Origin: Octopus vulgaris
Taxonomy: Eukaryota
Direction: 5' to 3'
NCBI GenBank assembly: GCA_951406725.2
Contig: OX597824.1
Span: 31,496,001 to 31,560,000, forward strand
Length of the DNA: 64,000 nucleotides
Below are positions 4,285-62,270 of the stretch, one piece after another. Under the pieces are notes generated by a model that saw nothing but the letters and a program-made list of their open reading frames with translations, was not told the origin of the DNA and made no database searches. The position numbers and the translations under genes were made by a program. Positions within the stretch are counted from its first letter, which is position 1. Each line of letters opens with the position of its first letter.

Positions 4285-5480
<1,196 letters not shown>

Positions 5481-12526: not shown

Positions 12527-12675
12527 TGACGATAAATGCTGTGACTACAAAGACCCGGGCTGCTTTCTGCAGCAATTCCACATACCCTACCCATTAATCC
12601 CCGGATCCCAAGTACCTATGTACCACCTATATCGTTAAAATGCTATATGTATTTAGGTGTGTATGTATGCATATG

Positions 12676-12977: not shown

Positions 12978-13058
12978 AGAAAAATCTATCTTGTTTCCAA
13001 TATTTTGTTAGGAATTATGGCTGCATGTTTTGTAACCCTTCTATTTATTTGTAAGGAA
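12978..13058 (+). CDS. Gene A exon (TM3): RKIYLVSNILLGIMAACFVTLLFICKE
   Basis: Long polypyrimidine tract plus cag acceptor, gtaagt donor. 81 nt, phase 0, hydrophobic. Aligns with gene B KITYMILSIL... Confidence 0.85.
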
Positions 13059-13332: not shown

Positions 13333-15049
13333 GTTTTCCATGCTAGCATGGGTTGGACGGTTCAATTGGGGTCTGGGAAGTCAGAAGGCTGCGCCAGACC
13401 CAGACTGATCTGGCAGTGTTTCTACAGCTGGATGCCCTTCCTAATGCCAACCACTCCATGAGTGTAGCGGATGCTTTTTACGTGCCACTGGCACAGGTTA
13501 CATAGTTAAAACAGTAGTTCTATGTGGTCTTTGAGACAAACCTACAATTTTTGGTTTTTGAGAACAAAGAGAAAATGAGGTAGTCCAGAATATCTATGTT
13601 GACATGAAATACTACTTTTGCAAGGATGGTGGTAGAGACTGGGAATCATGCCCTTTCTTGAAGAGCATTACAAACATGTGGAAGGATTTCTCCAAGAAAT
13701 TGGAAACAAGTTCTGAAATCAATTCCTTTGGAACTTACAGTACTCACAACTATAATAAACATGATAATAAATTTATAACTGTGATGAACAATTAATGTAC
13801 AGATTAAAAATATCTAGATCAGAAATTATTAATCAAAGTTGTGATTGTATGAAATTATTTTAAATTATTGACTTTTATTGATGGAAAACATTTATAGATT
13901 GTTAAACTAATTTTTGGTTTTCGTAAAAACTTTTTGTATCTTCTTTAATTCAGTTAAATTTTGAGGGATGGTTTCCTTCGTGATTATCATCAGGTGCTTT
14001 GTACTTGTGCTCAGGCTGGGAGTGAAGAAACAAACCATTTATTCATAGTATCTGTTGTTGGACAGACACTAAATAATTCAAAATTCTGTTTTACAAAATA
14101 AAAACTAAATTACAAAATTCATCAAACACCAATTAGCATTAACATTAACTAACATAAAAGACAATGTGGATACTTTAAAAATTAAATTTAGATATTTGGA
14201 ATTATGGTGTTATTGTTTGGCTGAAATAGTCAGAATAGATAATCATTTGATGCTGCAGAACAATAATTGAATCATTAATAATTGGATATTATTTCTTCAT
14301 TTTTTCAATAGTTTCTCTAATAGAAATCCTACAGTTAGAATTATGTGTATGCATTTTATTAACTTCTCTATAATAATTTCTATAGAAATGTTATTTCCTG
14401 AAAAATACAGTGATATTCATATAAATTAATGTACAAGTTGCTGGGTGTAGAAATGGTAAAATGTCTTACAGAACAGGTTGTGGTAAATTGGTTATATTCT
14501 TTTAGGTTCTGAGTTCAAATCCTTCCTTCGGTCAGCAACTTTATTTTTCATCCATCTGAGGCTGATGAAATTAGAACCAGTAAAATTAATTTAGGTTAAT
14601 ATAATCGGCTATATCTTAGAAGGTGGTACCCCAGCAATGCCACATTCAAATTACTGAAACTAGTAAAACAGTAAAAGACTGCATTAAAGCTATTTTAACA
14701 CTACACAGAAATCTTTAAAAGTAAAACATCAGTTTTAAAAAGCACCATCCGACCGTGGCCATTTGCCAGCCCCATCTGGCACGTAAAAAGCACCCACTAC
14801 ACTCACAGAGTGGTTGGCATAAGAAGGGCATCCAGCCGTAGAAACATTGCCAGATCAGACTGGGCCTGGTGCAGCCATCTGGTTTCCCAGACCCCAGTTG
14901 AACCGTCCAACCCATGCTAGCATGGAAAGCGGATGCTAAATGATGATGATGACGATGATGACTACTCGAAAAGTATGAATAATACTTCTTTTTGGCAATG
15001 TTATTTCTATCACTTTCTTTCTCTTTCAAATGTTTCTTTTCTTTTGCAG

Positions 15050-15142
15050 CCAATACATTATGTTGGAATTTTTTCACTGTTTCTGAATTTAACTTTTGCA
15101 ATTGCTTCTTTATATTTTTGTTATCGCTGTTCAGGAATAGAG
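15050..15142 (+). CDS. Gene A exon (TM4): PIHYVGIFSLFLNLTFAIASLYFCYRCSGIE
   Basis: cttttgcag acceptor and gag|gtaagt donor. 93 nt, phase 0. TM helix followed by juxtamembrane Cys. The acceptor region resembles that before 63911. Confidence 0.85.
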
Positions 15143-17454
15143 GTAAGTGCAGTGTTTTATTTATTTGATAATTGTTTATTGTATTGCAAGACACATCAAA
15201 TGTCGCACCATTTATGTCATCTTAGATTTGAAGATACCATATATATGACATTGTTCTTGTTTAGACTGCAAGAGATTGAGTCACATGACTTGGAGTTACT
15301 TCAGCTTATAAACTGCAAAATGTTCCCTTAGAAAGGAAAATAAATGAAAATCAATAGGAAATGAGTAATACATGATAAGATAAAAAAATAGATAAAGCAA
15401 TGTTTGTGGTTAAATATCAAGAGATAAAGTAGTGAAGGTAGTAAGATGTTAGCTAAGAGAAGAAAGCAAGTGTAGAGATAATGAGATTCGTCAAACATCA
15501 TTAAGTTAACACAAACGTTTGTCTGTTTATCTGATATCTGTTAAAAAAAAAGTGGACCTTTTTTAATAAAACTTTACTTGAAGGTTATTTAAGATTTGAG
15601 TGGCAAATATATTTGAGTAATTTTGACCTTCTGAACTTATCCCCCACAGAGTTTCTACTGCTTGAATTATTACCTGTCTATAAGAAAACAGCTATTCATA
15701 AAAGCCATAAACTTTGAATAAACCATACCTGTGACTTCAGATGAAGAAATACAGAAGCTCTTTTTTGCTTGACAAACTTTTTGTCAGACATAAAGATACC
15801 CTTTGGTCCAATAAAAACTCCCCTACACATTTTGATATCAGCATGTGTGCAATCGATTCAGCAGAGATCAGTGACTATACCTCTTGCATATCATGAAAGA
15901 TACCTTCCAAGGTTCTAAAGGTGATTTATAGTTCCTTGCTATCAACAATAACAACTGTCAACTCACAGATGAATTCTAAGAGTCTTCATAGCTTCTTCAA
16001 CAACCTAGGTTTCCAAATCTCTGTAGAACACTGCTTAAGAGAAGCCAACTTCTTGAACATAGCAATTGATTGGCCTGCTTGCCTGCCTACCTACCTACCT
16101 TCCTACCTACCTACATACATACATACATACATACATACATACATACACACATACACACATACATACATACATACATATATACAAACATACACATGCATGC
16201 ACACATACATACATACACATACATACATACATACATACATACATACATACATACATACATACATACATACATACATGATGTTACTGAAATTCCACTGAAA
16301 GAGTCTTGGATCTAGGATAGAAACTGACTCTTTCTCTATCAGCAAGAAATCTTGAAAAAAAATATGAATAATGACATAAATATATACATACAATCTGTTT
16401 TTGCAGGGTCATTGAATGATCAACAGCATTACAATACCTGAGCAAGCTGGAGGGAAGAATAATGTGTGGGGTTGTATACGACAGCTCCTAATTAAGAAAA
16501 TGCTCCCAGAAAAGAAAAAAACAGAAAAAAAATCACAGGAACTTAATGGTAGCGTGGCTGGACAACCAGAAGGCTTTGAATAGAAAACAAATGGGTGGAT
16601 TATCAAGGTTTTACAGCCAACCAAAATTACACAACCATTTGTGAGTGCTATTGAACGCCCGACCATGACTGGGTATACCACTTTGCTCCTAAGAAGTAAC
16701 AAGCAACAGATTGAATTAGATAGCACCCATTACCAAAAAAAATCATCTGTTGGGTTTTCTTTGTCGTTTCATAATATAGTGACCAGAGAAATGGATCCAG
16801 AAGAATTTCTCATCTTTCCTTTGTCAACAACTGAAACTGTATGGGCCAAATATAAGCCACATAACAAAAACAATTGGACCTTATAACTCAATTTCCTACA
16901 AACATTGGGATGAAATTTGGTGAGTTTAGATGGGGTTTTTTGACAGAAAAACATAGAAAAGTTGTGCCCTCCTCTGAAAGACTAAAAATGAATGGCTTAA
17001 CAATACAACCTTCACAGTCAGATGACAATTATAGGTATCTTGGACAAGATGAGAATGTCAGTTAGATATGCAGGACCCGTAAATAAGGGGAGAATCAGAA
17101 ATGACTACCTCAAGAGGGTAAAGAGAATATGGTCATCAAAATTTCCATCTTACAAAAAACATATTGCCCACAACACCTTTGCATTGCCTAGCCTTACACC
17201 TAGATTTGACCTTCTGAACTGGTCACTACAAGAACTCAATGAGATAGATATTAGAATTCACAAACTGCTCAGCATCAGTTGAGATGTAAACAGTCTATAC
17301 TTCCCATACAAGGAATGTGGCTGTGGTCTAAAATCTGTATTGATGTCATATGAAGCACAGATTGTGATGCTGAAACAACATTGGCAGCAGAGGAAAGAGG
17401 TCAATAACTATCTTGCCCAAGTTGGTGACCATGAAACTAATAACATAATTTTTT

Positions 17455-17755
17455 TTTCACCCTTTTCAAGCCTAGCCAGGCTCATGGGCCCGGTTTCTAT
17501 GGCACATGTGTTCCCCCCAGCTGGACGGATTGCCAGTCCATTGCAGTGTTACTCAAAAAACAGGAAGAGAGAGTGAGAGAAAGTTGTGGTGAAAGAGTAC
17601 AACAGGGGTTACCACCACCCCTGCTGCCAGAGCCTCGTGGAGCTTTTAGGCATTTTCACTCAATAAACACACACAACGCCCGGTCTGGGAATCGAAACTG
17701 CAATCCTCCGACCACAAGTCCACTGCCTTAACCACTGGGCCATTGCGCCTCCACA
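17455..17755 (-). mobile_element. tRNA-derived SINE (49070 family)
   Basis: Reverse complement gtggaggcgcaatggcccagtggttaaggcag...tcgattcccagaccggg. Other copies at 27195-27545 and 40850-41170. Confidence 0.8.
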
Positions 17756-17936
17756 ATAACATAATTAGTATACCTAAAGACAGTTTTCTACCCAAGGAAC
17801 ATTGGTAAGATCTATTTATCAGAGCAGAAGGAAAAATGAACCAGTTCACTGAGAAGATAGTACATGGGTACTTGGGACATAAAACAATAGTCATAGAAGA
17901 GATCAATCATGTCAACAGCTTGGTATAGAGTACCAG

Positions 17937-18100
17937 CACTAGCGTAGCTAGAATGTGTGCCACCTGGGGCAGTTCTTCTGTTTGCCACCCCCAGACCCCA
18001 CAAAAAGCACATATTGCCTACAGCAGACTAAAAGTGCCACAACTTTGAAAGTGCTGCCTGGGGCAGACCACCCCTACCACTCCCATAAGCTATGCTAGCA
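17937..18100. mobile_element. hAT-type MITE
   Basis: TIRs cactagcgtagct / agctatgctagca, flanked by an 8-bp TSD agtaccag / agtaccaa. Confidence 0.65.
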
Positions 18101-18404
18101 AGTACCAATAAGTTTATGATATCCCACTTTGAAGGCTACACCCATGCAATCCAAGAACAGAGATTCCCATCAAGTACCTACAACATAGAAGGCAGAAAAC
18201 ATTGATGCTCAACAAATGTAGGTTGTGTAACCCCGAGACTGAAGATATCAACTACATTATTGCCAACTGTGAGAGAATGTCTTCTAGATATTATCTTCCC
18301 ATGGGGCATGATATAGTGGTCATAATGGTCTGGAGCAGGATAACAAAAAACAGAATACCTACAAACTAAGTTGACTATATTGAGACTGATAGTTCAGAAG
18401 AATA

Positions 18405-18830
18405 CTCTCTTTACTCTTTTTACTCTTTTTATTTGTTTCAGTCATGTGACTGTGACCATGCTGGAGCACTGCCTTTAGTCGAGCAAATCGACCCCAGGAC
18501 TTATTCTTTGTAAGCCTAGTACTTATTCTATCAGTCTCTTTTGCTGAACCGCTAAGTTACAGGGATGTAAACACACTATCATCAGTTGTCAAGCGATGTT
18601 GGGAGGACAAACACAGACACACAAACATATACACACACATACATACATATATATATATATACATATATACGACGAGCTTCTTTCAGTTTCCGTCTACCAA
18701 ATCCACTCACAAGGCTTTGGTCAGCCCGAGGCTATAGTAGAAGACACTTGCCCAAGGTGCCACGCAGTGGGACTGAACCTAGAACCATGTGGTTCGTAAG
18801 CAAGCTACTTATCACACAGCCACTCCTACT
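18405..18830 (-). mobile_element. tRNA-derived SINE (984 family)
   Basis: Near-identical to 984-1388 and ends in a short tandem-repeat tail. Confidence 0.85.
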
Positions 18831-19449
18831 CCTACTGGTGGGATTTGAAAATTAAAAGTCACACAGTTAAAACACAACCAGTCAGGTATTGTAGTTGAGA
18901 TGACTCAGAAGTTGTTGCTCTTCAATTACAATCACAAACAGCAGTAGCTCTCTTCAGCTGAATACACATCTTTGACTGGTTAAAATTACCCAAATATGAC
19001 AACTTTAACATGGAATAACTTCTAAAATACGAAATTTTGTCAAAAATAGTGTAAGTAAACCGTGTTCAACATGAGAAATTACACCAGTATACGAAGTTTC
19101 AAACTGTTTAGTTAAAAACAAATAATTTTAAAATCTGCGAAACTGAAGAGATCCTAAAGATGTATGTGTACAGAATATTAAAGAAAGTTTTACCAAAACT
19201 TGCAAACTTTCATAATTATTATGAATTTTTGGTTGACATAATGGACATCAATTATTGTTTGGCCATGTTATCAACTGACTAAATATGCCAATTTATCAAA
19301 CATTAGCTGGGCTTTTATGGGCTATCAAATGTGAAAATCATTAGCAGTTTGTTTCCAGATACAAGACTATTATATTTATTTCATGCAAAAATTCATCTAA
19401 AATGTGATACAGTGAATCATAAATGTTGATATACTTGATTTTAATTTTA

Positions 19450-20340
19450 GATCAACATGCCAAAGAACTGATGGTCAAGACACCTCCAGTTGTCCTACAC
19501 CTGAAACTAGTAATGCCAACAATGAATCTCTGACATCTAGCATCTCAGTACTACAAATAAAAGCCATTCAAAAAGTGGGGTCTTTGAAATTCAGGAGCAA
19601 GTAATGCAAAATTCTCTTGAACTTGATATTGGGCTAGTTAGTCGAGCATCCATGGGCGAAAATGAGCACAAGACCATTCTTCAGCAGAAGTGGAAGACAC
19701 CAAAGCAGTTTACATACCCAAAGAATCACCAGAACAGAAGGTATTCTCCAGCATGGGAAGAAAAGTTCCCATGGCTTAGGTATTCTAAGTTTTTGGTTCA
19801 TTGTGTGTTTACTTTGCTGCCCAAGATATGAGCAATCCGGAATTTGTTACCAAACCATTCCAGGATTGGAAGAATGCCTGTGGTCAAGAAAGAGGGTCTC
19901 TAACTCATCATGAAAAGTCAGATACCCATTAAAGAGTAATGAAAAGGGTTGATGAATTTTTGATGATATGCCAAGGAGAAAAGAAATCAATCACAGAACA
20001 TTTTTCTAAGGCATATGCTCAGCGAGCCGAAAAGAACAGATTAACTCTTTCATGAATTCTTCATGTAATCACTTCCCTTGCAAAAAGAGGAAGCTGGTTC
20101 CATGAGAAGAAGGAAGGAGACAGTAATTTCAACATTTTTATTAAGTGTAAAGCAAAAGATAATCCTGCATTTGCAGCCTTTCTAGAAAATGTACCAAAGA
20201 ATGCAACATATTTATCTCCTGTTATCCAGAATCAATCAATTGAATGTCTTGCAACAGTCATCAGGAGGCAAATCATTAATGAAGCCATGAAGGCTGACAA
20301 TTTCAGTATCATGGTTGATGAAATTTGTGATGCAAAGGGG
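19450..20340 (+). pseudogene. hAT transposase remnant (TTF zinc finger and DUF4371 region; ZMYM1/THAP12-like)
   Basis: RRYSPAWEEKFPWLRYS, FVTKPFQDWKNA, FLENVPKNATYLSPVIQNQSIECLA..IRRQIINEAMKADNFSIMVDEICD. Frameshifts and stops are present. Confidence 0.85.
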
Positions 20341-21715
20341 TTTTTTTGGCTTTTGGAAACAACCATTTCTTTCTCTTTGTATATTTTTTGTTAAGTTAGA
20401 ATTTCTCTGTTTGGTCCAGATTTTCCAATTTCTTTTTTCTTGTATAAAGCAATGGATGGAAGCATTTAAAAACAATTAAATTCAAAGTGAACAAAATAAA
20501 AAATATCAACTTTTAAACATTTTTGGATCTAGTTTGAGTCACAAAATCAGCCCCCTTTAATTTTGCTCAGATTTGGGCAATGGATGGATTTTAGAATTTT
20601 GATTACACTCAATCAATTACTTTATCTTGTAAATTAAAGAATTTAATGTTACTTGGAACTACAGTTGAAAATTTGTGTAATTTTAGCTAATCAACAGACA
20701 GCAAGGCATTAACAACTAGTTACCATAGCAACATATCACTTGCTGTGCTGAGTCTTCTCGTCTGCATGCAGTTTCTCTGTACATGTTTTTATTTTTGTGC
20801 AAACTTTATAAATTGTCTATTACCTGTGCTCATATCAATTAGAATTTAATTTTAGGTATTTTTCATATATTTCGTGAAGTTTTTCTGTGTTTGTTTACTT
20901 TTTGCTTAGTGGTAAGAGCCTAGCACATGTATAAAATGGTTGGCATTAGGAAGGCATCCAGTCGTAGAAACCATGCAAATCAGACTGGAATATAGTGCAG
21001 CACCCCAGCTTGCCAGCTCTTGTCAAACCATCCAACCCATGCCTACATGGACAATGGACGATAAACGATGATGAATATAATATATTCAAATAAGTAAAAC
21101 ATAATATCATGAATAGCGATAGCGAAACCGGTCGATATATTAAAAATTATATTAAAACTATGTAAGTGTGCGTATTTTCCTTTTTCAATTTCCTATATAT
21201 ATATATATATACACACACACGTATTTTTACGTTTGTGTATTTGTTTTGCAAGGTTCCTGACGTGAAGTCATGTGTTGAAACAGATATTCTTGTATTTCGG
21301 GATGGTCATATTTCTTCTTTTTTCACCAAATTCATTCCACACTTGTTTATTATTGTTCTTATTTTATGTTTACTGTCTGGAAACCTTTCATCACACATCC
21401 TGTGATCTCTTCAGCAACTCTCCATCACACATATCTCCTGTGCTGTTTAGTCCATTCTGAGAATGGACCAAACAGAACTCTGGGGTGGAACAGAAGGACT
21501 AGGAATTTTTTTGCTTCAAGTATTATGATGATTTTGATGATTTTGGTGGGGTATGAAAATTTTGGAACAAACTCATTGAGAAATGGTAATGTTTTAAGGT
21601 AAACAGGAAAACATGACATATATTAGCTCTTAAATGGCTAAGGAAATAAATATGATTTAAAAGACATTTTACATGTTAATATAACCTTTCTAAAATTATC
21701 TTTCTGCTTCTACAG

Positions 21716-22381
21716 AAAAATGCTGTCACAACACAAGGACCAGGGATTATACATCTGCCAACTGATAGAAATGAAGCACTTAGACCTCCAGAATACACTG
21801 CTTATCCTTCAGAAATGCCTCCACAATACACTACTTCTCTTCCAGACGCCACTGAAGAACATATGCCTCCACAATACACTGCTTCTCCATCATATACTGC
21901 TGGAGCAGAAATGCCTCCACAATACAATGCTTCTCTTTCAGATGTCACTGAAGAACATATGCCTCCACAATACACTGCTTCTCCATCATATACTGCTGGA
22001 GCAGAAATGCCTCCACAATACAATGCTTCTCTTTCAGATGTCACTGAAGAACATATGCCTCCACAATACACTGCTTCTCCATCATATACTGCTGGAGCAG
22101 AAATGCCTCCACAATACAATGCTTCTCTTCCAGATGCCACTGAAGAACATATGCCTCCACAAGACACTGCTTCTCCATCATATACTGCTGGAGCAGAAAT
22201 GCCTCCACAATACAATGCTTCTCTTCCAGATGCCACTGAAGAACATATGCCTCCACAAGACACTGCTTCTCCATCATATACTGCTGGAAAAGAAATACCT
22301 CCACAATACAATGCTTCTCCTCCAGATGCAGATGCTACAAAAGAACTATGCCTTCATCAACTACCCAATGAAAGGGAATAG
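21716..22381 (+). CDS. Gene A terminal exon: cytoplasmic tail with PPEY and tandem PPQY repeats
   Basis: ttctgcttctacag acceptor. The phase-0 frame KNAVTTQGPG...LRPPEYTAYPSE runs into ORF 21815-22381 and matches the phase-0 donor at 15142. Stop TAG at 22379-22381. Confidence 0.8.
   Translation, partial: KNAVTTQGPGIIHLPTDRNEALRPPEYTAYPSEMPPQYTTSLPDATEEHMPPQYTASPSYTAGAEMPPQYNASLSDVTEEHMPPQYTASPSYTAGAEMPPQYNASLSDVTEEHMPPQYTASPSYTAGAEMPPQYNASLPDATEEHMPPQDTASPSYTAGAEMPPQYNASLPDATEEHMPPQDTASPSYTAGKEIPPQYNASPPDADATKELCLHQLPNERE
21812..22325 (+). repeat. Coding minisatellite: 48-bp units alternating as a 96-bp dimer, ~11 units
   Basis: atgcctccacaatac recurs every 48 bp. Peptide units are MPPQYTASPSYTAGAE and MPPQYNASL(S/P)D(V/A)TEEH. 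Confidence 0.95.
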
Positions 22382-22698
22382 AATTTTCATACTTTGTGCA
22401 ATTAAAAATTGTTTAAAAAGCATTATATATATATATATATATGTAATATAAAATATAAATTAAAAATAAAACCACTATTATGCAACTCAAACAGTGATAG
22501 ACATAAACCAAAACATAAATAACAAATAATATATATTTTTATAAAACATATAACTAGATCTCAAAAAGTATAAAAATGAATAATTAATATATAATAAGTA
22601 AAAAAACTATGTACGTTTCATGGCTACAATTAAATTCGAATCACAATTAAAATTTTAAGTTAATTGAAATGAATTCAATTTAAAATTATGTATATATA

Positions 22699-23864: not shown

Positions 23865-24474
23865 TATACACTGCTGGAGCAGAAATGCTTCCATAATACA
23901 ATGCTTCTCCTCCGGGTAAACACACATACACACACACACACATATATATATATATCAGCTCTTAAATGGTTATGGAAATAAATATTAATCATAGGCAAAT
24001 ATAATTTGCCTAAAGAGAGAGTGGGGTGCTTTCAAAAACAATAGCTGAATAAAGGATAGCATCTTGAATTGTAATTAAATTCCAACAAGTTGACTACATC
24101 AATACAATATAATTGAAAAGAACCTTCTTTCTCTCTGTCTTTCCTTTCCATTTTTCTTCTTTATTTTTTCTTTTTCATCTCAAAATACATGCTTTCTTCT
24201 ACTCTCTCCTCCTCTCCACCTTTCCTTCTCTTTTCTCTTTCTACTTTTCTAAACAAAACAAAACGATATATGTGACTGCATGTGTATCGTTGGCAATTTT
24301 TTTTCCTCCGTCTTCGCTTCCTTGGATCTTTCCTTTTTCTACGTTTCTGCCAAAGAGCTCTGCTCGAAACGTAAAACCCTCCTTCTTCCCTTCCTTCCTG
24401 AGCGTCCAATAATACTATATTTGTTCCACGTCCTCGCGTTGTTGTGTTTTCTCTTTGTGTTTTCATGTTTGGAT

Positions 24475-25699: not shown

Positions 25700-26970
25700 A
25701 TTAATATATATATAGTTAGAAGAAGAAAAATTGGATTAAAAAATCCTGGCAGGTATCAATAAAGTACTCAGTATTAAAAGAATTTAGTTATAAATCTTCA
25801 ACAATCAGATACCAGTGAATGTAAGTAGAAAGCATATTCAAGGCAAATCTTCATGCATGACAGGTAAATTCAAAAATTCATTTGCAGAATTTTGAAAAAC
25901 CGAGAGTATTTAGCAATAAACGGAGTATGGAATATCTAAATTCTAAATCTATAAGTAAAATTAGAACAGATAATGTGTATAGTGAAATTAACTCTAATGA
26001 TACACTTTCTAAACAAGGTTTGATTCTATAACTAATCACAACTCTGATAATAAAGTTAGTTTGTTCCCTAGCCTTAATATTAATTATCATGATAATAACC
26101 CCACCTAAACACCTAATTTGCAGAGGAAAGCTAGTAGAAATTCCTTTAAATATGAGTATCAAATTCAATTGAATAAATGCCTGTGTAATTGTCTAAACAA
26201 AACTGTATGCCCTTTAGAAAATCTGTATTTAAGGGGAAAAATATCGTATTTCAGTATAAGGTAACAACTGGAGCTCATAAGTATTATCATATTGGGTCAT
26301 CTACTACAATTTGGAAATCTAGATTTCATAATCATTCACATTCATTTATGTATAGAAGAAAAAGTAATCCTACAAATCTTAATAAATAAATTTGGGATTT
26401 AAAAGACGAGAACATTAAGTATGATTTAAAGTGGTCCCTTATTAGTTATGCTCCATTGAAGAATATTGGTAATTCTACATGTGATCTTTGTCTTGAAGAA
26501 ATGTATTATATAATTACTTCTAGATTTTATTGAAATTTGATGGAAACTTTACAATAAGATGTTGCCATAAATTTAGAAAGACATTCAAATCTTTCAATTA
26601 TTAATAATGATTTTTCATATATTGTATAGTTTTAGTTAATTTTGATGAAAGATTCAATATTGAGTAAATTGATAACTAATTGTTATGATGTAAAGTATCT
26701 AAGTTTTTATTAATCATAATGTAGAATCCTTAGCTTTATTGTTTATTCTTTAGTTATCCAGTGACATCACCAATAGTTGTATACAAAAATAGCATTTTTT
26801 AGATTATATTTCTATGTAGATTCCTAATTGTCATAATGTAGAATTCTAATGTTTGTTTTTTTCATTATTTCTTTATCCATTGACATCACCAATAGTTGAA
26901 TACAAAAATGACTTTTTCTTAGATATGGTTATTTTTCGTTTTATTTTTATAAAACATTTTTGTTACCCAA
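25700..26970 (+). mobile_element. Penelope-like element 3' fragment with GIY-YIG endonuclease remnant
   Basis: ORF 26189-26389 NIVFQYKV...YHIGSSTTIWKSRFHNHSHSF...TNL, followed by IWDLKD..I.Y..KWS and CDLCLEE. Parallels ORF 53341-54090. Confidence 0.75.
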
Positions 26971-28374: not shown

Positions 28375-30537
28375 ACATACATATATCTGTGTGTGTGTGT
28401 GTTGTGCATACAGATAGAGAAGGAGAGGGTGAGGGAGAGAGAAAAAGCAGGTGACAGAGAAAGCTAGGCTTCATAATTTACAGTATACACCCATATACTT
28501 AAATAAGTTGTTTGTACAGTAGATATTGCAGTTAATGGTGTGACCTACTTTGATAACAAGATCATATACTTTACAATTTACAAATACATTCATTCTTAAC
28601 TAATCATCATATTAAAACATGACTACCTTAAGTCTCCAATACAATAACTGCGCATTGAACATTTGTATATTTCAATCCAACAAAGCAAATTCAATGGTCT
28701 GTAGTGGCTGTGTGGTAAGTAGTTTGCTTAACAACTACATGGTCCTGGGTTCAGTCCCACTGCGTGGCATCTTGGGCAAGTATCTTCTACTATAGCCTCA
28801 GGTCGACCAAAGCAGCCTTGTGAGTGAATTTGGTAGAGAGAAACTGAAAGAAGCCTGTCATATGTGTGTGTCTGTGTGTGTGTGTGTGTGTGTTTGTCGA
28901 CCACCCCCATCTTTGCTTGATAACTGATGTAACTTAGCGGTTCAGCAAAAGAGAACGATAGAATAAGTACTAGGCGCTTCCACACACATTGACCGGGGTT
29001 AATTTGCTCAACTAAAGGCAGTGCTTCAGCATGACTGAAGTCAAATGAATGAAACAAATGAAAGAATAAAAGAATACACTTAGATAATTATGCAAGTTTT
29101 GGCCAGAAATGGCCCAGGCCACGATTAACTTAATACCACCATCTGGAAAAGATGATGTGTGTTTGTGTGTCTGTCTGTCTGTCTATGCGCATCCCTAATC
29201 ACGAAAACTTGAGAACAACCCAACCGATTTCATTGATGTTTTAACGAAAATGCGTCAAGTCCAACAGGAAACGGTGTTTCCTAGGGCTAAATAACAGTAG
29301 CAGTCTTCCTTTTTATGGGACTGTCACATTAAGTTGACAACATACTGTTGCGCCGCCACTTAGGACCCTAGGCCTTCCGATTCCACCACAGGCCCTAAGT
29401 CGCGACGATGACACTCAGTAAACCGGAAATCCACCATGGGAAGTGGGGAAGGCAGCGAACGCAGCCAGGAACCAACACAGCGACAACAAAAGAAAGAGAC
29501 ACAGCGAAAGTAGCGTAATTTAGCAATTTTTTTTTTCAAAACGAAATCAAAGCATTCCAAAACAAAGGTTGACAAATCATGTACAGAGTCCGAAGAACAA
29601 TCATTTGCATTTAAACATAATACAGAGTTCGAAAAAATCAAAAAACAAATCATTTAACATTTGATACAATACAGTCCGATTTTTCAAGACAACTCATTTT
29701 TTTTTTACATTTAACACAAAGTTCACAATCAAAAGGGTTCCTTCTCTTTTTTAAAACATTTCCAAGTTCTTTTTTATTCTTCCTTTCCTTTTCTCTTAAA
29801 AACAGCCAACAACGCGCTCTTTTTTTTTTCTTTTCAACGATTACGTCAGAGCCTCTCGTTTTTTTTCATTTCAACAACACATCGTCTCTATTTGAACATC
29901 GAAATTCAAAACACAATTAAAAACATTACCGCATGTTCCACGCCTGCAACACTCCCTGAACATCACAAAACTCCCACTATAAGAACTTGCCTACCGCTCG
30001 TTGTCACCTCTATCTGTCAGTCTGTCATTTTTGCTGCCTCTCGTTCTGTCTTTTGCCCACTCACTGTCTATCTCTCTCTAGACCCTGACTGTCATCTTTG
30101 TGGCTGCCTCTCGCCGACTCAACCTTTAACTTAATGCCAGCCGTATTTATAACGGGTAGCAGCTAGAAGAAGAGAAATATCGATGACAGCAGTGTGTAGA
30201 TCCCGCCCCAACATTAAAATTTTTTTTAAAACTTGCCGTGGCCGTGTGGGGACCATAGTTCACTGTCCAGGGCCATTAATAATCGTGGTCTTTGACAGGA
30301 CAAAGGAAATACCATTGTCCTGAACAACTGGAGCACCGGTTCGATTCCAACTAATGGAACAAGGGGCATAATGTTTCTTGTTCGTTTACTTTTCCTTGTC
30401 TCCGTAACAATACTATCACTTTATCATGTTGTGACTGCATAAATCTCTCTGAGAGATTTAGAAATATATTTTTACATTTAATAATGTTTCATATAGCAGT
30501 CATTCTTTGGGCGCCTTAGATCATTTGAGTAGCCGCA

Positions 30538-30613
<76 letters not shown>

Positions 30614-30865
30614 CAATATACACATAATATACACACATAATATGAAATGATATAATGTAATCTATATATATAAAACTGAGAATGTCTGTGTGTGTGTGTG
30701 TCTGTCTTTCTATGGAGTATCATGGGCCGAGGAGGTGTCCTCCTGGGGCTACAAGCTACAGTAGCATCCACCCTTAGGGGTTAGCCACATTTAAGTGTCA
30801 AATATACTTCACAATGTCGTGCAGCTACTGTTTATACTTCGCTCAGAGATTTATTATTACTGATG

Positions 30866-30928
<63 letters not shown>

Positions 30929-33099
30929 ATATGTATTTATACATATATCTGTGTGTATGTGTGTTTGTGCATACAGATAGAGAAGGAGAAGGTGAGGGAG
31001 AGAGAAAGATTAGGTGACAGAGAAAGCTAGGCTTCATAATTTACAGTATACACCCATATACTTAAATAAGTTGTTTGTACAATAGATATTGCAGTTAATG
31101 GTGTGACCTACTTTGATAACAAGATCATATACTTTACAATTTACAAATACATTCATTCTTAACTAATCATCATATTCAAACATGACTACCTTAAGTCTCC
31201 AATACAATAACTGCGCATTGAACGTTTGTATATTTCTTTCCAACAAAGCAAATTCAATGGTCTGTAGTGGCTGTGTGGTAAGTAGTTTGCTTAACAACTA
31301 CATGGTCCTGGGTTCAGTCCCACTGCGTGGCATCTTGGGCAAGTATCTTCTACTATAGCCTCAGGTCGACCAAAGCAGCCTTGTGAGTGGATTTGGTAGC
31401 GAGAAACTGAAAGAAGCCTGTCATATGTGTGTCTGTGTGTGTGTGTGTGTGTGTTTGTCGACCACCCCCATCTTTGCTTGATAACTGATGTAACTTAGCG
31501 GTTCAGCAAAAGAGAACGATAGAATAAGTACTAGACGCCTCCACACACATTGACCTGGGGTCAATTTGCTCAACTAAAGGCAGTGCTTCAGCATGACTGA
31601 AGTCAAATGAATGAAACAAATGAAAGAATAGAAGAATACACTTAGATAATTATGCAAGTTTTGGCCAGAAATGGCCCAGGCCACGATTAACTTAATACCA
31701 CTAACTGGAAAAGATGATGCGTGTTTGTGTGTCTGTCTGTCTGTCTATGCGCATCCCTAATCACGAAAACTTGAGAACAACCCAACCGATTTCATTGATG
31801 TTTTACCGAAAATGTGTCAAGTCCAACAGGAAACTGTGTTTCCTAGGGCTAAATAACAGTAGCAGTCTTCCTTTTTATGGGACTGTCACATTAAGTTGAC
31901 AACATACTGTTGCGCCGCCACTTAGGACCCTAGGCCTTCCGATTCCACCACAGGCCCTAAGTCGCGACGATGACACTCAGTAAACCGGAAATCCACCATG
32001 GGAAGTGGGGAAGGCAGCGAACGCAGCCAGGAACCAACACAACGACAACAAAAGAAAGAGACACAGCAAAAGTTGCGTAATTTAGCAATTTTTTTTTCAA
32101 AACAAAATCAAAGCATTCCAAAACAAAGGTTGACAAATCGTGTACAGAGTCCGAAGAACAATCATTTGCATTTAAACATAATACAGAGTTCGAAAAAAAT
32201 CAAAAAACAAATCATTTAACATTTGATACAATACAGTCCGATTTTTCAAGACAACTCATTTTTTTTTTACATTTAACACAAAGTTCACAATCAAAAGGGT
32301 TCCTTCTCTTTTTTAAAACATTTCCAAGTTCTTTTTTATTCTTCCTTTCCTTTTCTCTTAAAAACAGCCAACAACGCGCTCTTTTTATTTCTTTTCAACG
32401 ATTACGCCAGAGCCTCTCGTTTTTTTTCATTTCAACAACACATCGTCTCTATTTGAACATCGAAATTCAAAACACAATTAAAAACATTACCGCATGTTCC
32501 ACGCCTGCAACACTCCCTGAACATCACAAAACTCCCACTATAAGAACTTGCCTACCGCTCGTTGTCACCTCTATCTGTCAGTCTGTCATCTTTGCTGCCT
32601 CTCGTTCTGTCTTTTGCCCACTCACTGTCTATCTCTCTCTAGACCCTGACTGTCATCTTTGTGGCTGCCTCTCGCCGACTCAACCTTTAACTTAATGCCA
32701 GCCGTATTTATAACGGGTAGCAGCTAGAAGAAGAGAAATATCGATGACAGCAGTGTGTAGATCCCTCCCCAACATTAAAATTTTTTTTAAAACTTGCCGT
32801 GGCCGTGTGGGGACCATAGTTCACTGTCCAGGGCCATTAATAATCGTGGTCTTTGACAGGACAAAGGAAATACCATTGTCCTGAACAACTGGAGCACCGG
32901 TTCGATTCCAACTAATGGAACAAGGGGCATAATGTTTTTTGTTCGTTTACTTTTCCTTGTCTCCGTAACAATACTATCACTTTATCATGTTGTGACTGCA
33001 TAAATCTCTCTGAGAGATTTAGAAATATATTTTTACATTTAATAATGTTTCATATAGCAGTCATTCTTTGGGCGCCTTAGATCATTTGAGTAGCACGCA

Positions 33100-33185
<86 letters not shown>

Positions 33186-33439
33186 ATACACATAATATAC
33201 ACACATAATATGAAATGATATAATGTAATCTATATCTATAAAACTGAGAATGTCAGTGTGTGTGTGTGTGTGTGTCTGTCTTTCTATGGAGTATCATGGG
33301 CCGAGGAGGTGTCCTCCTGGGGCTACAAGCTACAGTAGCATCCACCCTTAGGGGTTAGCCACATTTAAGTGTCAAATATACTTCACAATGTCGTGCAGCT
33401 ACTGTTTATACTTCGCTCAGAGATTTATTATTACTGATG

Positions 33440-33496
<57 letters not shown>

Positions 33497-34428
33497 ATAT
33501 GTATTTATACATATATCTGTGTGTATGTGTGTTTGTGCATACAGATAGAGAAGGAGAAGGTGAGGGAGAGAGAAAGATTAGGTGACAGAGAAAGCTAGGC
33601 TTCATAATTTACAGTATACACCCATATACTTAAATAAGTTGTTTGTACAGTAGATATTGCAGTTAATGTTGTGACCTACTTTGATAACAAGATCATATAC
33701 TTTACAATTTACAAATACATTCATTCTTAACTAATCATCATATTCAAACATGACTACCTTAAGTCTCCAATACAATAACTGCGCATTGAACGTTTGTATA
33801 TTTCTTTCCAACAAAGCAAATTCAATGGTCTGTAGTGGCTGTGTGGTAAGTAGTTTGCTTAACTAAAGGCAGTGCTTCAGCATGACTGAAGTCAAATGAA
33901 TGAAACAAATGAAAGAATAGAAGAATACACTTAGATAATTATGCAAGTTTTGGCCAGAAATGGCCCAGGCCACGATTAACTTAATACCACTAACTGTCTA
34001 TCTATGCGCATCCCTAATCACTAAGACTCGAGACCAACGCAACCGATTTCAATGATGTTTTACCGAAAATGTGTCAAGTCCAACAGGAAACTGTGTTTCC
34101 TAGGGCTAAATAACAGTAGCAGTCTTCCTTTTTATGGGACTGTAACATTAAGTTGACAACAATACTATCACTTTATCATGCTGCTAATGCATAAAACTCT
34201 CTGAGAGATTTAGAAATATATTATTTTTACATTTAATAATGTTTCATATAGCAATCATTCTTTGGGCGCCTTAGATCATTTGAGTAGCACACACGCACAC
34301 AATATACACATAATATACACACACGAAATGATATAATGCAATGTAATCTATATATATAAAACTGAGAATGTATGTGTGTGTGTGTGTGTGTTTGTGTCTG
34401 TCTGTCTGTCTATGGAGTATCATGGGCC
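28375..34428 (+). repeat. ~2.57-kb tandem duplication: two full copies and a shorter third
   Basis: Identical ORFs at 29892 and 32453 and near-identical ORFs at 30814 and 33388. Unit starts near 28375, 30940 and 33507. Each unit contains a SINE and Helitron-like termini. Confidence 0.95.
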
Positions 34429-35746: not shown

Positions 35747-35983
35747 ATACCTATTTCTTTACTACCCACAAGGGGCTAAACACAGAGAGGACAAACAAGG
35801 ACAGACATAGGTATTAAGTCGATTACATCGACCCCAGTGCGTAACTGGTACTTAATTTATCGACCCCGAAAGGATGAAAGGCAAAGTCGACCTCGGCGGA
35901 ATTTGAACTCACAACGTAACGCAGACGAAATACCGCTAAGCATTTCGCCCGGCGTGCTAACGTTTCTGCCAGCTCGCCGCCTT
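35747..35983 (-). mobile_element. tRNA-derived SINE (55741 family)
   Basis: Near-identical reverse complement of 55741-55975. Confidence 0.85.
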
Positions 35984-37449
35984 CATTATATCATTATATC
36001 ATTCTCATTATATCATACCGTTTTATTATTATTTTTTTCATTTGTTATATATCGCCAGATGTGTTGTATTGTCGCGCTTTGTTGGCTCATTATGGGTAAT
36101 AAAGAAACACCGTAACTAATGTTAATTGTTGAATTGCTGAATTATCGAATTGTTATTTTGCCTAATTGTTATTTTGCCTAATTGTTTTCTTCCCCATTTA
36201 TGGGTGAAGTTGTTACAAACGAAATAATTAGAAAGTCGACCAGGTCCAGCCGGTAGCTATGCTGTAGTAACTGGAAAATATTTGACTGCTGATATATTAC
36301 AAGTGAGAGAAGTAAAACTAGACGAGAAGAAATTGAAAAAGGTTAACGAACTTATAGTAAAAGAAGATAACAGCTTGAAGTTGACCCCGCTGAAAGAAGT
36401 GACAGAAAATACCACTAAAAGGACAGTAATTTATAGAACGCTGTCCACAGCAACTAAAATGATCAAAATAGCTACAGCGGATGCAGTAGAAGAATGTCTA
36501 AAGGGCATGATAAGCCTCATGACATTCTATACTAGAGGCAAGAAATATGATTCGTTAAAAAATTGATGACGTTTTTCTTCCGGGACCTTATCTTTTGAAC
36601 GGCACATGTCAACACAATTTCTAGTTAACTAAACACTTTTAAACTTCGTATACTGGTAGAATGTGTTTATAAAACATCATTTTTTCTTGGCTTTATTGAG
36701 AAAATTCTATAGTTTGTAAGATATTTCGTCTGAAATTTCGAGCATTTCGGCAATTTTAACCAATCGCTGACCTCCATTTACGATGAAAACATTCCGTGCT
36801 GTATGAATATGTCCCTCGTTTAAGAAACAGATTGGGTTTATTTACATTTGCGAAGAAAAAAAGATACCCTTCCCCCACCCCTAACTGGTGTTTGTGGAAT
36901 TTCATTGGACTGGAGGTGGGTGACGTCAGCATCTTGTGTTTGTATGGTGATTTGGAGCTGCGGTTTCGAAATCCGGGTGGAAGATTTTACTAAAATTTTA
37001 TTGTTTTTTTGTGTTGAAATTGGGTGTTTTTTCTCTTCTTTATACTGCTTTTTCTTCTTTCTAAAGGATATTTAGCAGTGGTTTATATTTTTTAATCAGT
37101 ATGTTTTCCTTATTTAAACGGAATTGGGTTGAAGTGGTCCAGTGCATTGATAGAGAGGGAAGATTTGGTATTTAGGGTTTAATTTAACAACATTGAAACA
37201 TTTCAGTTTTTCAACATTGAAACATTTTGATTTGTCAACATTGAAACTTATAACGATGTTTTTCTAATTTTACACTTTTACCATTGATAAACAAAAAATA
37301 TTGTTGAAACTAGTTTGGTATATATGTAAATAAATGTAGTTTAAACATTTACGAGTTTTTGAAATTTAAGTGCATTTTCAGCAACACGTTTTCCTATATA
37401 TATTTTTTTGTGCGTGTAAACACCACTCCCTCTTTTGCTATATATATAT

Positions 37450-42353: not shown

Positions 42354-43645
42354 GAGGGGCGTTCAATAAGTAATGCCCCTGACCCACTTCCCATAGCAGT
42401 AGAGCAACGAAACTTGGAACAGTTATTAGTCTTTTTCTACATAGGAACCACCCAGAGTTACGCATTTCTCCCATCGTTTGATGCAGCTCTGAAGACCGTT
42501 TTTGTAGAAGACCCCAGCTTGGTCCTCCAACCACGACGTGACTTCAGAAATCAAGGCTGCATCATCTGGGAAACGCTTTCCTTTCAAAAACAACTTCATG
42601 GCTGGGAAGAGATGAAAATCAGAGGGTGCAAGGTCAGGAGAGTAGGGGTGATGGGGGATGAGTTCATAGCCGCACGCCTGTGCTTCTGATCTGGCAACAC
42701 GCGAGTTGTGGATCGGAGCGTTGTCCTGCAGGAGGAGGATGCCTTTGCTGATCTTGCCCCGCCTCTTGATTTTGATAGCTTCTCTTAATTTCCTCAAAAG
42801 TGAAGCATAATAGACTCCTGTAATTGTGGCACCCTTTGCCAGAAAATCTGTCTTCACTACTCCATCCTGGTCCCAGAAGACTGTAAGCATGACCTTGCCA
42901 GCGAAGGGCTGCACCCTTGCCTTCTTTGGAGGAGGTGAGTCACGGTGCTTCCACTGCATTGACTGGGCTTTGGTCTCTGGATCATAGTGATGGACCCAGG
43001 TTTTATCCTATGCAATCAGTCTTTTGAAAAATTTTGACTCATCTTCTTGGCACATCTCCAAATTCATCCTCGAGCAATCGACGCGTTCTTGCTTCTGGAA
43101 AGGTGTGAGCAACCTGGGAATCCATCTGGCAGACACCTTTTGCATATGCAAATGGTCATGAATGATCGTTTCCACAGACCCGGTACTAATCTTGACCTCA
43201 TGGGCTATTTGGCGAATAGTTATGCGTCGATCTTCCAAAATGGCAGCCTCAACTTGACAGACAGATGCCTCATCAATGGCAGAGAGGGGGCGACCAGATC
43301 TGGGAGCTGTTTCCACAGAGTTCCGACCATGTTTGAATTCATGATGCCAGCCTTTTACAAGGTCATATGATGGGGCATCATCACCATAAGTTACTTTCAT
43401 TTCATCAAAAGTCTCCCGTGGTGTGCGTCCTTTCAAATACAAAAACCGGATCACTGCTCGACACTCAACATGCTCTATTTCACACTTGACTCAGTTCAAA
43501 CACCTGTAAATCGGAAACCACAATTAGTTTAGGGCTGTAATTTGCCACTTAATCTATAGAGATATAAATAATTGCACATGCACAATTTCAGCTAGATCAA
43601 ACAACTGCAAGTGGGTCAGAGGCATTACTTATTGGACGCCCCTCG
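42353..43645 (-). mobile_element. Full-length mariner transposon, transposase with one in-frame stop
   Basis: 1293 bp with TIRs cgaggggcgttcaataagtaatgcc / ggcattacttattggacgcccctcg and TA flanks. Motifs WIPRLL, D(K)TW, QDNA and HPYSPDLAPSD. The two ORFs are in one frame separated by TAG at 43008-43010. Confidence 0.95.
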
Positions 43646-55405: not shown

Positions 55406-55612
55406 ATGCTTGTTCGTCACACATACTCAGGGCTAACATTAACAGGTATAATGCATTTGGTCCTTGGGGGTTTTTGTTTTGCTTCTTCACTGGTTGCCTT
55501 CAATACAAAGCGTTGGTTTGGCAGACAAGTACTCTATTCACCCTACTATGGAGTCAACACTGAAGAGCTGCCCTACATATCTGCCGTATTTGGATGTATT
55601 GCAAGCCTGTGG
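55406..55612 (+). CDS. Gene B (CD20/MS4A-like tetraspan) first coding exon: MLVRHTYSGLTLTGIMHLVLGGFCFASSLVAF...ISAVFGCIASLW
   Basis: Acceptor ttttag at 55381, ATG at 55406, tgg|gtaagt donor. 207 nt. TM1 GIMHLVLG resembles the MS4A G..QI..G pattern. Confidence 0.85.
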
Positions 55613-55740
55613 GTAAGTATTGACATTCTTTGTAACAGTTGCATATTGATCAAAGATATATTGATTTCCAAGTTTAGCACAAGGCTAGTTCAGGGGATGA
55701 GGTAAGTCAATTACTTAGCCCCAGTGCTCAACTGGTATCA

Positions 55741-55975
55741 AGGCGGCGAGCTGGCAGAAACGTTAGCACGCCGGGCGAAATGCTTAGCGGTATTTCGTCT
55801 GCGTTACGTTATGAGTTCAAATTCCGCCGAGGTCGACTTTGCCTTTCATCCTTTCGGGGTCGATAAATTAAGTACCAGTTACGCACTGGGGTCGATGTAA
55901 TCGACTTAATACCTATGTCTGTCCTTGTTTATCCCCTCTGTGTTTAGCCCCTTGTGGGTAATAAAGAAATAGGTA
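55741..55975 (+). mobile_element. tRNA-derived SINE nested in an older copy of the same type
   Basis: ggcggcgagctggcagaaacgttagc...gagttcaaattccgcc (B box). The flanks 55705-55740 and 55976-56110 are a degenerate inverted copy. Confidence 0.85.
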
Positions 55976-56787
55976 TCTATGTTATCAACCATGAAAGAAT
56001 GAAAGACAAAGATGACCTCAGCAGAATCTGAACTCAGAATGTAAAGATGGACAAAAGGCCGCTCAGTATTTTGCTGGGTATGCTAACAATTCTGCCAGCT
56101 GGCCACCTTACACTGATCAAAGTTATATTGCAATAAATATTTTCACTTCTTACTGTTAATAATCATGGCAAAATATTTAAGGACTATTAACCTGAGCCCT
56201 TTCAATTTTTTACTTTGTAAATTATGACATCACTTTTCAAACTATTTCATCAATTGTCATCCGGTGCCAAAATTGGGTGGAGTTTTTTTTTTTGTTTTTG
56301 TGGGGTTTTTTTTTTTGTTTTGTTTTTGTGGGTTTTTTTTTAAAACCTGAACAAGAAATAAAGAGTTAATTTCTGATGGCAGAGATCAACTCTTTTAAAC
56401 TTAATGTTTTATCCGTTTCATTCAAATATGATAAAAATGGTTCAAAAGTTTCAGAATTTTTCACAGAATAAAGAGTATTGGACATAAACAAGATACTCAG
56501 AATTGCCCAGGAGACAAAGTGGACAGTTGGTAGCCAATTTGTTGAATGCTGATAATTGTAATTCTGCATAAATTTAGTATTTCAAACAATGTATATAATA
56601 TTTGTAACACAAGTCCATGATCATTTTTACCTCTTAAAATTTTACTTATATTTCATTAACTTACAATAAAAGGAATTAACAGAATGATTTATTACTTTAT
56701 AAACTGGCCTTCACCAGTAATAAATATAGACTGCTCTACTTCTTAGAGTGAGCTTCTTCGCCGGATATATGTTTTTCTAAAAAGATT

Positions 56788-59325
56788 GTGTGTGTGTAAT
56801 GTATGTATGTAATGTATGTATGTAATGTAATGTAATGTATGTATGTATGTAATGTATGTAATGTAATGTATGTATGTAATGTATATATGTAATGTATGTA
56901 TGTATGTAATGTAATGTATGTAATGTAATGTATGTATGTAATGTATGTATGTAATATATGTGTGTAATGTATGTATGTATGTAATGTATATATGTATGTA
57001 ATGTATGTAATGTAATGTATGTAATGTAATGTATATATGTATGTATGTATGTATGTAATGTATGTATGTATGTAATGTATGTATGTATGTAATGTATGTA
57101 TGTAATGTAATGTATGTATGGTAATGTATGTATGTAATGTATGTATGTATGTATGTAATGTAATGTATGTATGTAATGTATGTAATGTAATGTAATGTAT
57201 GTAATGTATGTATGTAATGTATGTAATGTAATGTATGTATGTAATGTATGTATGTATGTAATGTAATGTATGTATGTAATGTATGTATGTAATGTATGTA
57301 TGTAATGTAATGTATGTATGTAATGTATGTATGTAATGTAATGTATGTAATGTAATGTATGTATGTAATGTATGTATGTAATGTATGTATGTATGTAATG
57401 TATGTATGTATGTAATGTATGTATGTAATGTAATGTATGTATGTAAGTATGTATGTAATGTATGTAATGTATGTATGTAATGTATGTATGTAACGTATGT
57501 ATGTATGTAATGTATATATGTAATGTATATAATGTATGTATGTATGTATGTAATGTATGTATGTATGTAATGTAATGTAAGGTAATGTATGTAATGTATG
57601 TATTTAATGTATGTATGTATATATGTAATGTATGTTTATAATGTATGTATGTATGTATGTATGTATGTATGCAATGTGTGTAATGTATGTATGTAATGTA
57701 TGTATGTAATGTATGTATGTATGTAATGTATGTATGTAATGTATGTAATGTAATGTATGTATGTAATGTATGTAATGTAATGTATGTATGTAATGTATGT
57801 ATGTAATGTATGTATGTAATGTATGTATGTAATGTAATGTATGTATGTAATGTATGTATGTAATGTATGTATGTATGTATGTAATGTAATGTATGTATGT
57901 AATGTATGTATGTATGTAATGTAATGTATGTAATGTAATGTATGTATGTAATGTAATGTAATGTATGTATGTATGTAATGTAATGTATGTAATGTAATGT
58001 ATGTATGTAATGTATATATGTAATGTATGTATGTATGTAATGTAATGTATGTAATGTAATGTATGTATGTAATGTATGTATGTAATATATGTGTGTAATG
58101 TATGTATGTATGTAATGTATATATGTATGTAATGTATGTAATGTAATGTATGTAATGTAATGTATGTAATGTAATGTATATATGTATGTATGTATGTAAT
58201 GTATGTATGTATGTAATGTAATGTATGTATGTATGTAATGTATGTATGTAATGTAATGTATGTATGTAAGGTAATGTATGTAATGTATGTATGTAATGTA
58301 TGTATTTAATGTATGTATGTATATATGTAATGTATGTTTATAATGTATGTATGTATGTATGTATGTATGCAATGTGTGTAATGTATGTATGTATGTAATG
58401 TATGTATGTAATGTATGTATGTATGTATGTAATGTAATGTATGTATGTAATGTATGTAATGTAATGTAATGTATGTAATGTATGTATGTAATGTATGTAA
58501 TGTAATGTATGTATGTAATGTATGTATGTAATGTATGTATGTATGTAATGTAATGTATGTATGTAATGTATGTATGTAATGTATGTATGTAATGTATGTA
58601 ATGTAATGTATGTATGTAATGTATGTATGTATGTAATGTAATGTATGTAATGTAATGTATGTATGTAATGTATGTATGTAATGTATGTATGTATGTAATG
58701 TATGTAATGTATGTATGTAAGTATGTATGTAATGTATGTAATGTATGTATGTAATGTATGTATGTAATGTATGTATGTAACGTATGTATGTATGTAATGT
58801 ATATAATGTATGTATGTAATGTATGTATGTAATGTATGTATGTAATGTAATGTATGTATGTAAGGTAATGTATGTAATGTATGTATGTAATGTATGTATT
58901 TAATGTATGTATGTATATATGTAATGTATGTTTATAATGTATGTATGTATGTATGTATGCAATGTGTGTAATGTATGTATGTAATGTATGTATGTAATGT
59001 ATGTATGTAATGTAATGTATGTATGTAATGTATGTAATGTAATGTATGTATGTAATGTATGTAATGTAATGTATGTATGTAATGTATGTATGTAATGTAT
59101 GTATGTAATGTATGTATGTAATGTATGTATGTATGTAATGTATGTATGTATGTAATGTAATGTATGTATGTAAGTATGTATGTAATGTATGTAATGTATG
59201 TATGTAATGTATGTATGTAATGTATGTATGTAACATGTATATATGTAATGTATATAATGTATGTATGTAATGTATGTATGTATGTATGTATGTATGTAAT
59301 GTATGTATGTATGTAATGCATGTAT
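56788..59325. repeat. 2.5-kb compound (TATG)/(TAATG) satellite in gene B intron
   Basis: Directly visible. Source of the 859-aa YIHT ORF. Confidence 0.95.
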
Positions 59326-60074: not shown

Positions 60075-60146
60075 GTTATGGTAGTTGGGATATTTGGAAT
60101 GATTGTTGGTAAAAATTCAATCTCACCAATTCACTCTATGAAACTG
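60075..60146 (+). CDS. Gene B exon: VMVVGIFGMIVGKNSISPIHSMKL
   Basis: ttttag acceptor and gtaaat donor. 72 nt, phase 0. Completes TM2 (W-x-x-x-x-G-I-x-G). Confidence 0.85.

Positions 60147-61942: not shown

Positions 61943-61950
<8 letters not shown>
61010..61950 (-). mobile_element. Degraded mariner transposase
   Basis: DFTLENQPCGRP..VDNDKL...TTCEL...IREVKKLDK, GAIHYSFM.PG.SIT.DVY..QL, HPPYSPDFAPTD. Confidence 0.8.
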
Positions 61951-61989
<39 letters not shown>

Positions 61990-61993
<4 letters not shown>

Positions 61994-62169: not shown

Positions 62170-62270
62170 AACTGACAAAATTAGTCAACACTCCCTGCAC
62201 AATCTCATATACACACAACCATACATGCACACAGTCACATACAAATATCTATGTCTGTATGCACACACAT

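Follow-up and report, generated by a model that had tools for sequence, protein, structure and literature searches.

The window, that is, the whole 64,000-nucleotide stretch of Octopus vulgaris DNA analysed here, contained parts of two paralogous genes on the plus strand, gene A and gene B. Gene A encodes a predicted membrane protein with a repetitive tail. Its coding exon 2 (2205–2276) covers the second half of transmembrane segment 2 (TM2) and the cytoplasmic loop (24 codons, phase 0, AG/GT ends), and was matched by the TM profile of the paralog family with an E value of 3.7e-06. Coding exon 3 (12978–13058; 27 codons, phase 0, CAG/GT ends) encodes TM3. Coding exon 4 (15050–15142; 31 codons, phase 0) encodes TM4, and there the Cys cluster and the TM4 Glu of the family have been lost. 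The terminal coding exon (21716–22381) has a CAG acceptor and 221 codons plus a stop, and encodes the predicted cytoplasmic tail. These four phase-0 exons, separated by GT-AG introns, form a single open frame, and a TM-region profile built from the paralogs matched exons 2–4 with an E value of 2e-13. The family TM profile gave no TM1 exon in the 64-kb window; therefore, the first coding exon of gene A lies upstream of base 1. A second open frame over the last exon (21642–22451) was rejected because its phase does not fit that of the TM exons. By eye, a stretch of intron 2 (12530–12575) looks like the beginning of the last exon; blastn did not list it.

Gene B (55406–64000), the next paralog of the cluster, has exons at 55406–55612, 60075–60146, 62387–62476, and from 63911 to the window end. 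The proteins of genes A and B were the most distant pair compared, with 18 of 86 residues identical. About 1 kb of the intron after the TM3 exon is 79–82% identical between the genes (13555–14700 in gene A, 62719–63766 in gene B), part of it inverted. An inverted copy of 240 bp with 97.9% identity lies at 35747–35986, and an imperfect inverted repeat at 55737–56109 directly follows the first exon of gene B. The region 28377–33863 holds a recent tandem segmental duplication with an offset of 2562 bp and 97.9% identity over 2935 bp. On the minus strand, 42426–43490 encodes a transposase in two adjoining frames, presumably Mariner-like from its motifs.

The tail of gene A was identical to the end of the public Octopus vulgaris protein CAI9729914.1, which also uses the 15142–21716 junction. 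Upstream of TM3 this protein model was rejected: its N-terminus derives from 4532–4660, a sequence repeated at 25894–26001, and TM1-2 are missing. Four of the 24 listed sequencing runs (X2, X4, X6, and X9) were aligned to the window. None of the 24 is recorded as RNA: X4 and X9 owe their RNA label to a guess by the tool, and X2 is unlabelled. At the exon 3 acceptor, the depth of X2 corresponded to 71.3 bases in the bin, compared with 71 expected for an acceptor at 12978 and 49 for that of CAI9729914.1. The N-terminus of CAI9729914.1 has probably been mis-predicted and thereby conceals the TM1-2 exons.

The contig match started at 21714 in all three RNA-like runs (X2, X4, and X9), in which most intron bins had no depth, while a contig of the DNA-like run X6 (21340–21775) crossed the acceptor at 21716. 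The 701-nt contig of X2 showed no differences from the window and had 535 further letters upstream of the acceptor, which fit exons 2–4 (244) plus 291 for the first exon. Splicing at the 21716 acceptor is well supported, with 15142 as its likely donor partner, and there is good indirect evidence that gene A is expressed. The terminal coding exon, its frame, and its splicing at 21716, all proposed in the preliminary description, were supported by the open phase-0 chain and the contig starts of X2, X4, and X9.

A lone PPEY motif (21785–21796, by frame translation) precedes a 96-bp coding minisatellite (21812–22329) of 5.4 copies. It comprises 11 units of 16 residues, alternately of types A and B, whose PPQ[Y/D] motifs start at 21818 and every 48 bp thereafter, the last at 22298. 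Units 8 and 10 carry PPQD (22154 and 22250) and the other nine PPQY, so the tail holds ten intact PPxY motifs. TRF gave the period of 96 bp with 97% matches and 0% indels, and a period of 48 bp with 10.7 copies and 74% matches. The motif count of the preliminary description was borne out by the open frame, as was its higher-order A/B repeat free of indels. The spacing of 16 residues that it gave is exact among the eleven PPQ[Y/D] units; the distance from PPEY to the first PPQY is 11 residues. Its acidic spacers hold for type A, where the acidic residues are concentrated. The 176 residues of the array include 32 P, 36 S/T, 25 D/E, 14 Y, 1 K, and 0 R, with five N-A-S sequons; the whole 221-residue tail has three lysines, and none within the array precedes its last spacer. 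No second PPxY cluster was found in the six frames of the 64-kb window. Two PPxY motifs arose within one shuffled 32-residue unit in 17 of 20,000 shuffles. The ten motifs are copies of one duplicated unit rather than ten independent events.

The neighbouring paralog CAI9729913.1, used as query, retrieved a tandem cluster with accessions within CAI9729910–CAI9729926, which is also represented in O. sinensis and O. bimaculoides; 71 representatives remained at 50% identity. The curated cut-off of the Pfam CD20-like family (PF04103) was passed by 15 of the 62 more distant relatives scanned, all 15 outside the octopus clade, and one of ten close paralogs gave a hit with an E value of 9e-4. No match above this cut-off was obtained for the gene A exons or P0001. 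None of seven single-exon queries matched Pfam, and one of them (63909–63998), being out of frame, is uninformative. Ranks 2 and 3 of the Atlas search were CD20-like clusters (0.92 and 0.90), with PF04103 on 48% and 52% of their members. The public models P0007 and P0013 (CAI9729925 and CAI9729926) contain the TM2–TM4 block twice, through tandem duplication of exons or through the merging of two genes.

The predicted structure of paralog P0002 consists of four helices and a disordered tail. Its best Foldseek matches were chain B of Fc-epsilon-RI entries (8k7t_B, E 0.045), which we take to be the beta subunit, and none reached E 0.001. The VIA-align matches were level with generic bundles: 8k7t_B scored Z 12.1 (rmsd 3.3, 141 aligned) and 9c3c_n scored Z 13.7 (rmsd 2.7, 137 aligned), both below an unrelated soluble bundle at Z 14.4. 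The PDB sequence search with alignment A2 gave a best E value of 0.088. TM3 and TM4 of gene A are still hydrophobic. Judged from sequence, gene A appears to be a distant CD20/MS4A relative outside PF04103. The MS4A-like host suggested earlier stands as kinship with the wider family, in which PF04103 is passed by 15 of 62 relatives and Atlas scores reach 0.92 and 0.90, but not as a PF04103 match of gene A itself.

The four-helix topology of the family predicts a cytoplasmic, disordered tail for gene A, whose TM1 lies outside the window. The ten PPxY motifs follow the last TM segment, and their cytoplasmic side is likewise derived from family topology. Protein searches returned no annotated ortholog with the long tail of gene A, and a search of the tail among proteins of 388–2000 residues gave no match, which is weak evidence. 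Atlas hits to the tail reached at best 0.85 and serve as leads only. AlphaFold2 (AF2) modelled the array as repeating strands, each starting at QY. The tail would be a structural repeat if it formed either a solenoid in which tyrosines stack or, as the five N-A-S sequons and 36 S/T might suggest, a glycosylated, mucin-like stalk on the exoplasmic side. The tail model, however, had a mean pLDDT of 55 and no Foldseek match below E 1.7, and AF2 is described as biased towards solenoids on perfect repeats (PMC11795689). The array has 32 Pro and 25 acidic residues in 176, NAS also occurs in the one-copy tail of P0005, and the topology predicted from the P0002 model places the tail inside. The solenoid-like model was set aside for its low confidence and the missing fold match, and a structural role of either kind is considered highly improbable.

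The array could be traced to a shorter unit. The tails of P0002 and P0004 carry a single B followed by A at a distance of 16 residues. The tail of P0005 contains a one-copy B+A in which 20 of 34 residues match a gene A unit and the second motif has decayed to APLY. The 32-residue unit with two PPxY motifs, to judge by its presence in P0002 and P0004, predates the amplification in gene A. In the paralogs, the sequence ahead of B is similar to the end of A, a resemblance that would permit misalignment. The roughly fivefold tandem amplification may have come about by unequal crossover or slippage in the ancestral tail, between a pair of similar segments of 16 residues. Within the array, units 3-4 equal units 5-6, and units 7-8 equal units 9-10 except for the last codon. 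Both PPQD units trace to a single T>G change within a duplicated 96-bp block, as would follow from a later duplication of the block bearing one Y>D change. About 1.5 kb downstream, a broken copy of the repeat junction (23871–23913, plus strand) is 88% identical over 43 bp and contains an in-frame TAA. It is followed at 23950–23985 by duplicated intron sequence from ahead of the last exon. The segment 23871–23985 is a remnant of a local rearrangement.

In run X9, which carries another organism's label, the Y-type 96-mer appeared as a collapsed cycle of 126 nt with 5.2 times the flank depth. Contig assembly merges variants, and this value was not counted as a difference from the mean of 2.9 copies of the same words in the window. 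The X9 cycle indicates that an expanded array is not private to the Octopus vulgaris assembly. The preliminary description had proposed a valency adjustable by repeat number and Y>D changes. This was not upheld: a copy-number difference between organisms is not readable from the merged X9 contigs, and the two PPQD motifs represent one change copied with its block.

Tail repeats have also expanded elsewhere in the cluster. The P0006 tail shows a separate expansion with a period of 16, in which two PPQY are intact and the others have decayed (PLQY, PPQH). The tails of P0008, P0012, and P0014 show another, with a period of 5 (VYPPN) and without PPxY. The minisatellite in gene A may be near-neutral. 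The protein would then be an ordinary PY adaptor of the one-to-three-motif kind, or a relaxed duplicate, and its extra copies would be tolerated slippage without gain over the two-motif paralog. The independent repeats in two other paralog lineages, one of them PPxY-free, fit this explanation. So do the duplicated Y>D change, the broken unit displaced 1.5 kb downstream, and the 90 TRF rows in 64 kb. The same Y>D loss, tolerated and then copied, and paralogs that enlarge PPxY-free repeats (P0008, P0012, and P0014) or let the motif decay (P0005 and P0006) speak against a multivalent adaptor. The expanded Y-type cycle in X9, at about 5.2 times the flank depth, speaks against neutrality. If the extra copies are neutral, neither the coding minisatellite nor the adaptor that carries it is out of the ordinary.

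The branch length of gene A was 2.03 against a median of 0.14, and the gene keeps eight of the 18 residues invariant in 13 close relatives. It groups with P0002, P0004, and P0005 (99/97), a placement that is unsure for a long branch. The long branch and the loss of invariant residues are compatible with relaxed constraint; the long branch and the lost Cys cluster favour the neutral explanation. In simulated neutral decay to 60% and 45% identity, only 13 and 2 of 1000 runs kept TM3/TM4 free of both stops and charges, under a rough model that starts from the present sequence and has no indels. The simulation indicates that gene A is still under constraint, and the constrained TM exons speak against the neutral explanation.

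PPxY was present in 22 of 62 relatives' tails, which are not independent, compared with 3.9 expected (maximum 11 in 500 composition shuffles). The 62 were the 71 matches minus P0001 itself and eight others without a detectable tail boundary or with too short a tail. Forty tails had no PPxY, 19 had one, two had two, and one had three. Control motifs were not enriched (YxPP 3, YPxP 5, PPxxY 2, and PPxF 0 of 62), and permuted controls were mildly enriched (PYxP 9, PxPY 8, and PxYP 8). In the invertebrate CD20-like tails (P0020–P0086), the motif was about sixfold enriched and often lay within 45 residues of the C-terminus. The x position of the relatives' motifs varied (A, P, D, T, K, H, S, V, E, and Q), as expected for a WW ligand. 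These counts support PPxY as a probably old, selected feature of the family, and the invertebrate CD20-like family may represent an unrecognised class of PY adaptors.

Between A and B units, none of the 15 bases of MPPQY differed, compared with 12 of the 33 spacer bases (p 0.009), ten of the 12 being amino-acid changing. Invariant motif bases beside diverged spacers are at odds with neutrality. The evidence for selection on the motif is only suggestive, because the few synonymous sites of the motif were unchanged too. The tail of gene B, which the preliminary description had proposed for comparison and which extends beyond the window, contained no PPxY. The lack of PPxY in gene B and in 40 of 62 relatives counts against an adaptor reading of the gene A tail, and together with the PPxY-free repeats of the paralogs it speaks against special selection for valency.

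PPQY is an established WW ligand in other proteins, in agreement with the binding role proposed earlier for PPxY: it binds WW1 and WW2 of YAP1 (PMC10163693), and the WW domains of Itch bind it in a Tyr-dependent manner (PMC13156293). By analogy with these ligands, the gene A tail would bind WW domains through PPQY. The favoured explanation, held with moderate confidence, is that an ancestral two-PPxY unit was amplified about fivefold, and that the tail is a membrane-tethered multivalent ligand that would recruit and activate NEDD4-family ligases. Octopus presumably possesses ligases of this family. The tail would disinhibit the ligase as ENTREP and NDFIP proteins do, leading to ubiquitination of the gene A protein itself, through its three tail lysines, or of neighbouring membrane proteins.

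Efficient activation of Nedd4-family ligases requires a dense local PY array, achieved by membrane tethering or polymerisation, according to Mund and Pelham (PMC5892558). Two or three linked PY motifs were insufficient in that report, in which the dense arrays were artificial constructs (PMC5892558). NDFIP2 is likewise described as requiring several motifs (PMC12720080). From the density requirement of Mund and Pelham, it is plausible that ten motifs outperform two or three. That PY-motif density matters in cells (PMC5892558) tells against neutral extra copies; NEDD4-family ligases are reported to have only two to four WW domains each (PMC10438380, PMC12720080), which tells in favour of them. 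Near-neutrality is the main alternative, possible but rather unlikely. Multivalent binding by Spartin was reported as insufficient for phase separation of Itch without polyubiquitin (PMC10438380), and the idea of condensates is tempered accordingly.

A tail that binds WW domains could also act negatively, without targeting cargo. It would sequester WW proteins such as YAP/Yorkie or WWOX at the membrane, or drive self-ubiquitination and loss of NEDD4-family ligases. With 1 K in 176 residues the array almost lacks lysine, and its 16-residue spacing could engage tandem WW pairs. Binding of PPQY by both YAP1 WW domains (PMC10163693) fits sequestration, and the PPQY of MAML1 triggers self-ubiquitylation of Itch and lowers its level (PMC13156293). 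The architecture of gene A, however, matches that of activating adaptors (PMC8811627, PMC12720080), and a sink or negative regulator appears quite unlikely.

The gene A tail and its two-motif paralog, whose unit is nearly identical, offer a natural comparison of whether linear valency is sufficient by itself. The enrichment of PPxY in their tails points to a possible function of the invertebrate CD20-like proteins, a large family that is uncharacterised. A broader proposal treats the Octopus cluster of CD20-like genes as a set of ubiquitin-ligase adaptors tethered to the membrane, with the number of tail repeats (0, 1, 2, or 10 PPxY) determining how strong each one is. Gene A would be its natural single-chain dense PY array, able to activate or condense NEDD4-family ligases where ordinary adaptors depend on clustering, and invertebrate CD20-like proteins would generally form an unrecognised PY-adaptor class. 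This proposal as a whole is speculative and doubtful.

Phrase searches, which are weak evidence of absence, found a study of five separate PPxY ligands but no single protein with five to ten PPxY in open-access text, nothing on an MS4A protein with a tail of the gene A type in open-access titles and abstract starts, and no work on the Octopus cluster by title among open-access papers on octopus or invertebrate MS4A. Cephalopod rhodopsin has a proline-rich tail; a search for kinship between it and the gene A tail gave nothing relevant.

Gene A shares its exon plan and TM profile with the invertebrate CD20-like four-helix proteins, including the Octopus cluster, and its tail unit with the nearest paralogs. 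It differs from these relatives in having ten PPxY motifs rather than none to three, shorter TM3 and TM4 exons, and no Cys cluster. With vertebrate MS4A proteins (CD20 and Fc-epsilon-RI beta) the likeness is a predicted four-helix fold, the match of E 0.045 being below significance. An ITAM is a pair of YxxL/I motifs. Neither YxxPhi nor an ITAM was found in the 221-residue tail of gene A, which in this respect differs from MS4A proteins of the Fc-epsilon-RI beta type.

A close parallel is ENTREP/FAM189A2, with FAM189A1/B, which combines a CD20-homology membrane part with cytoplasmic PPxY motifs (PMC8811627). ENTREP binds and activates ITCH through these motifs; it is described as single-pass, and its tail of 343 residues has two motifs at a distance of 42 residues (PMC8811627). 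Gene A, compared by architecture only, has ten motifs with a spacing of 16 residues that arose from a coding minisatellite. NDFIP1, NDFIP2, and TMEM127 are likewise membrane-tethered PY adaptors, and ligase disinhibition requires several motifs; each NDFIP combines three TM helices with three PY motifs on the N-terminal side, and TMEM127 has one C-terminal motif (PMC5892558, PMC12720080). In gene A the motifs are C-terminal to the TM region, the family model has four helices, and no sequence kinship with these adaptors was seen. PY-bearing membrane adaptors, one of them with a CD20-like part, are thus already known, and what appears to be new, from its sequence, is the high-valency version in gene A.
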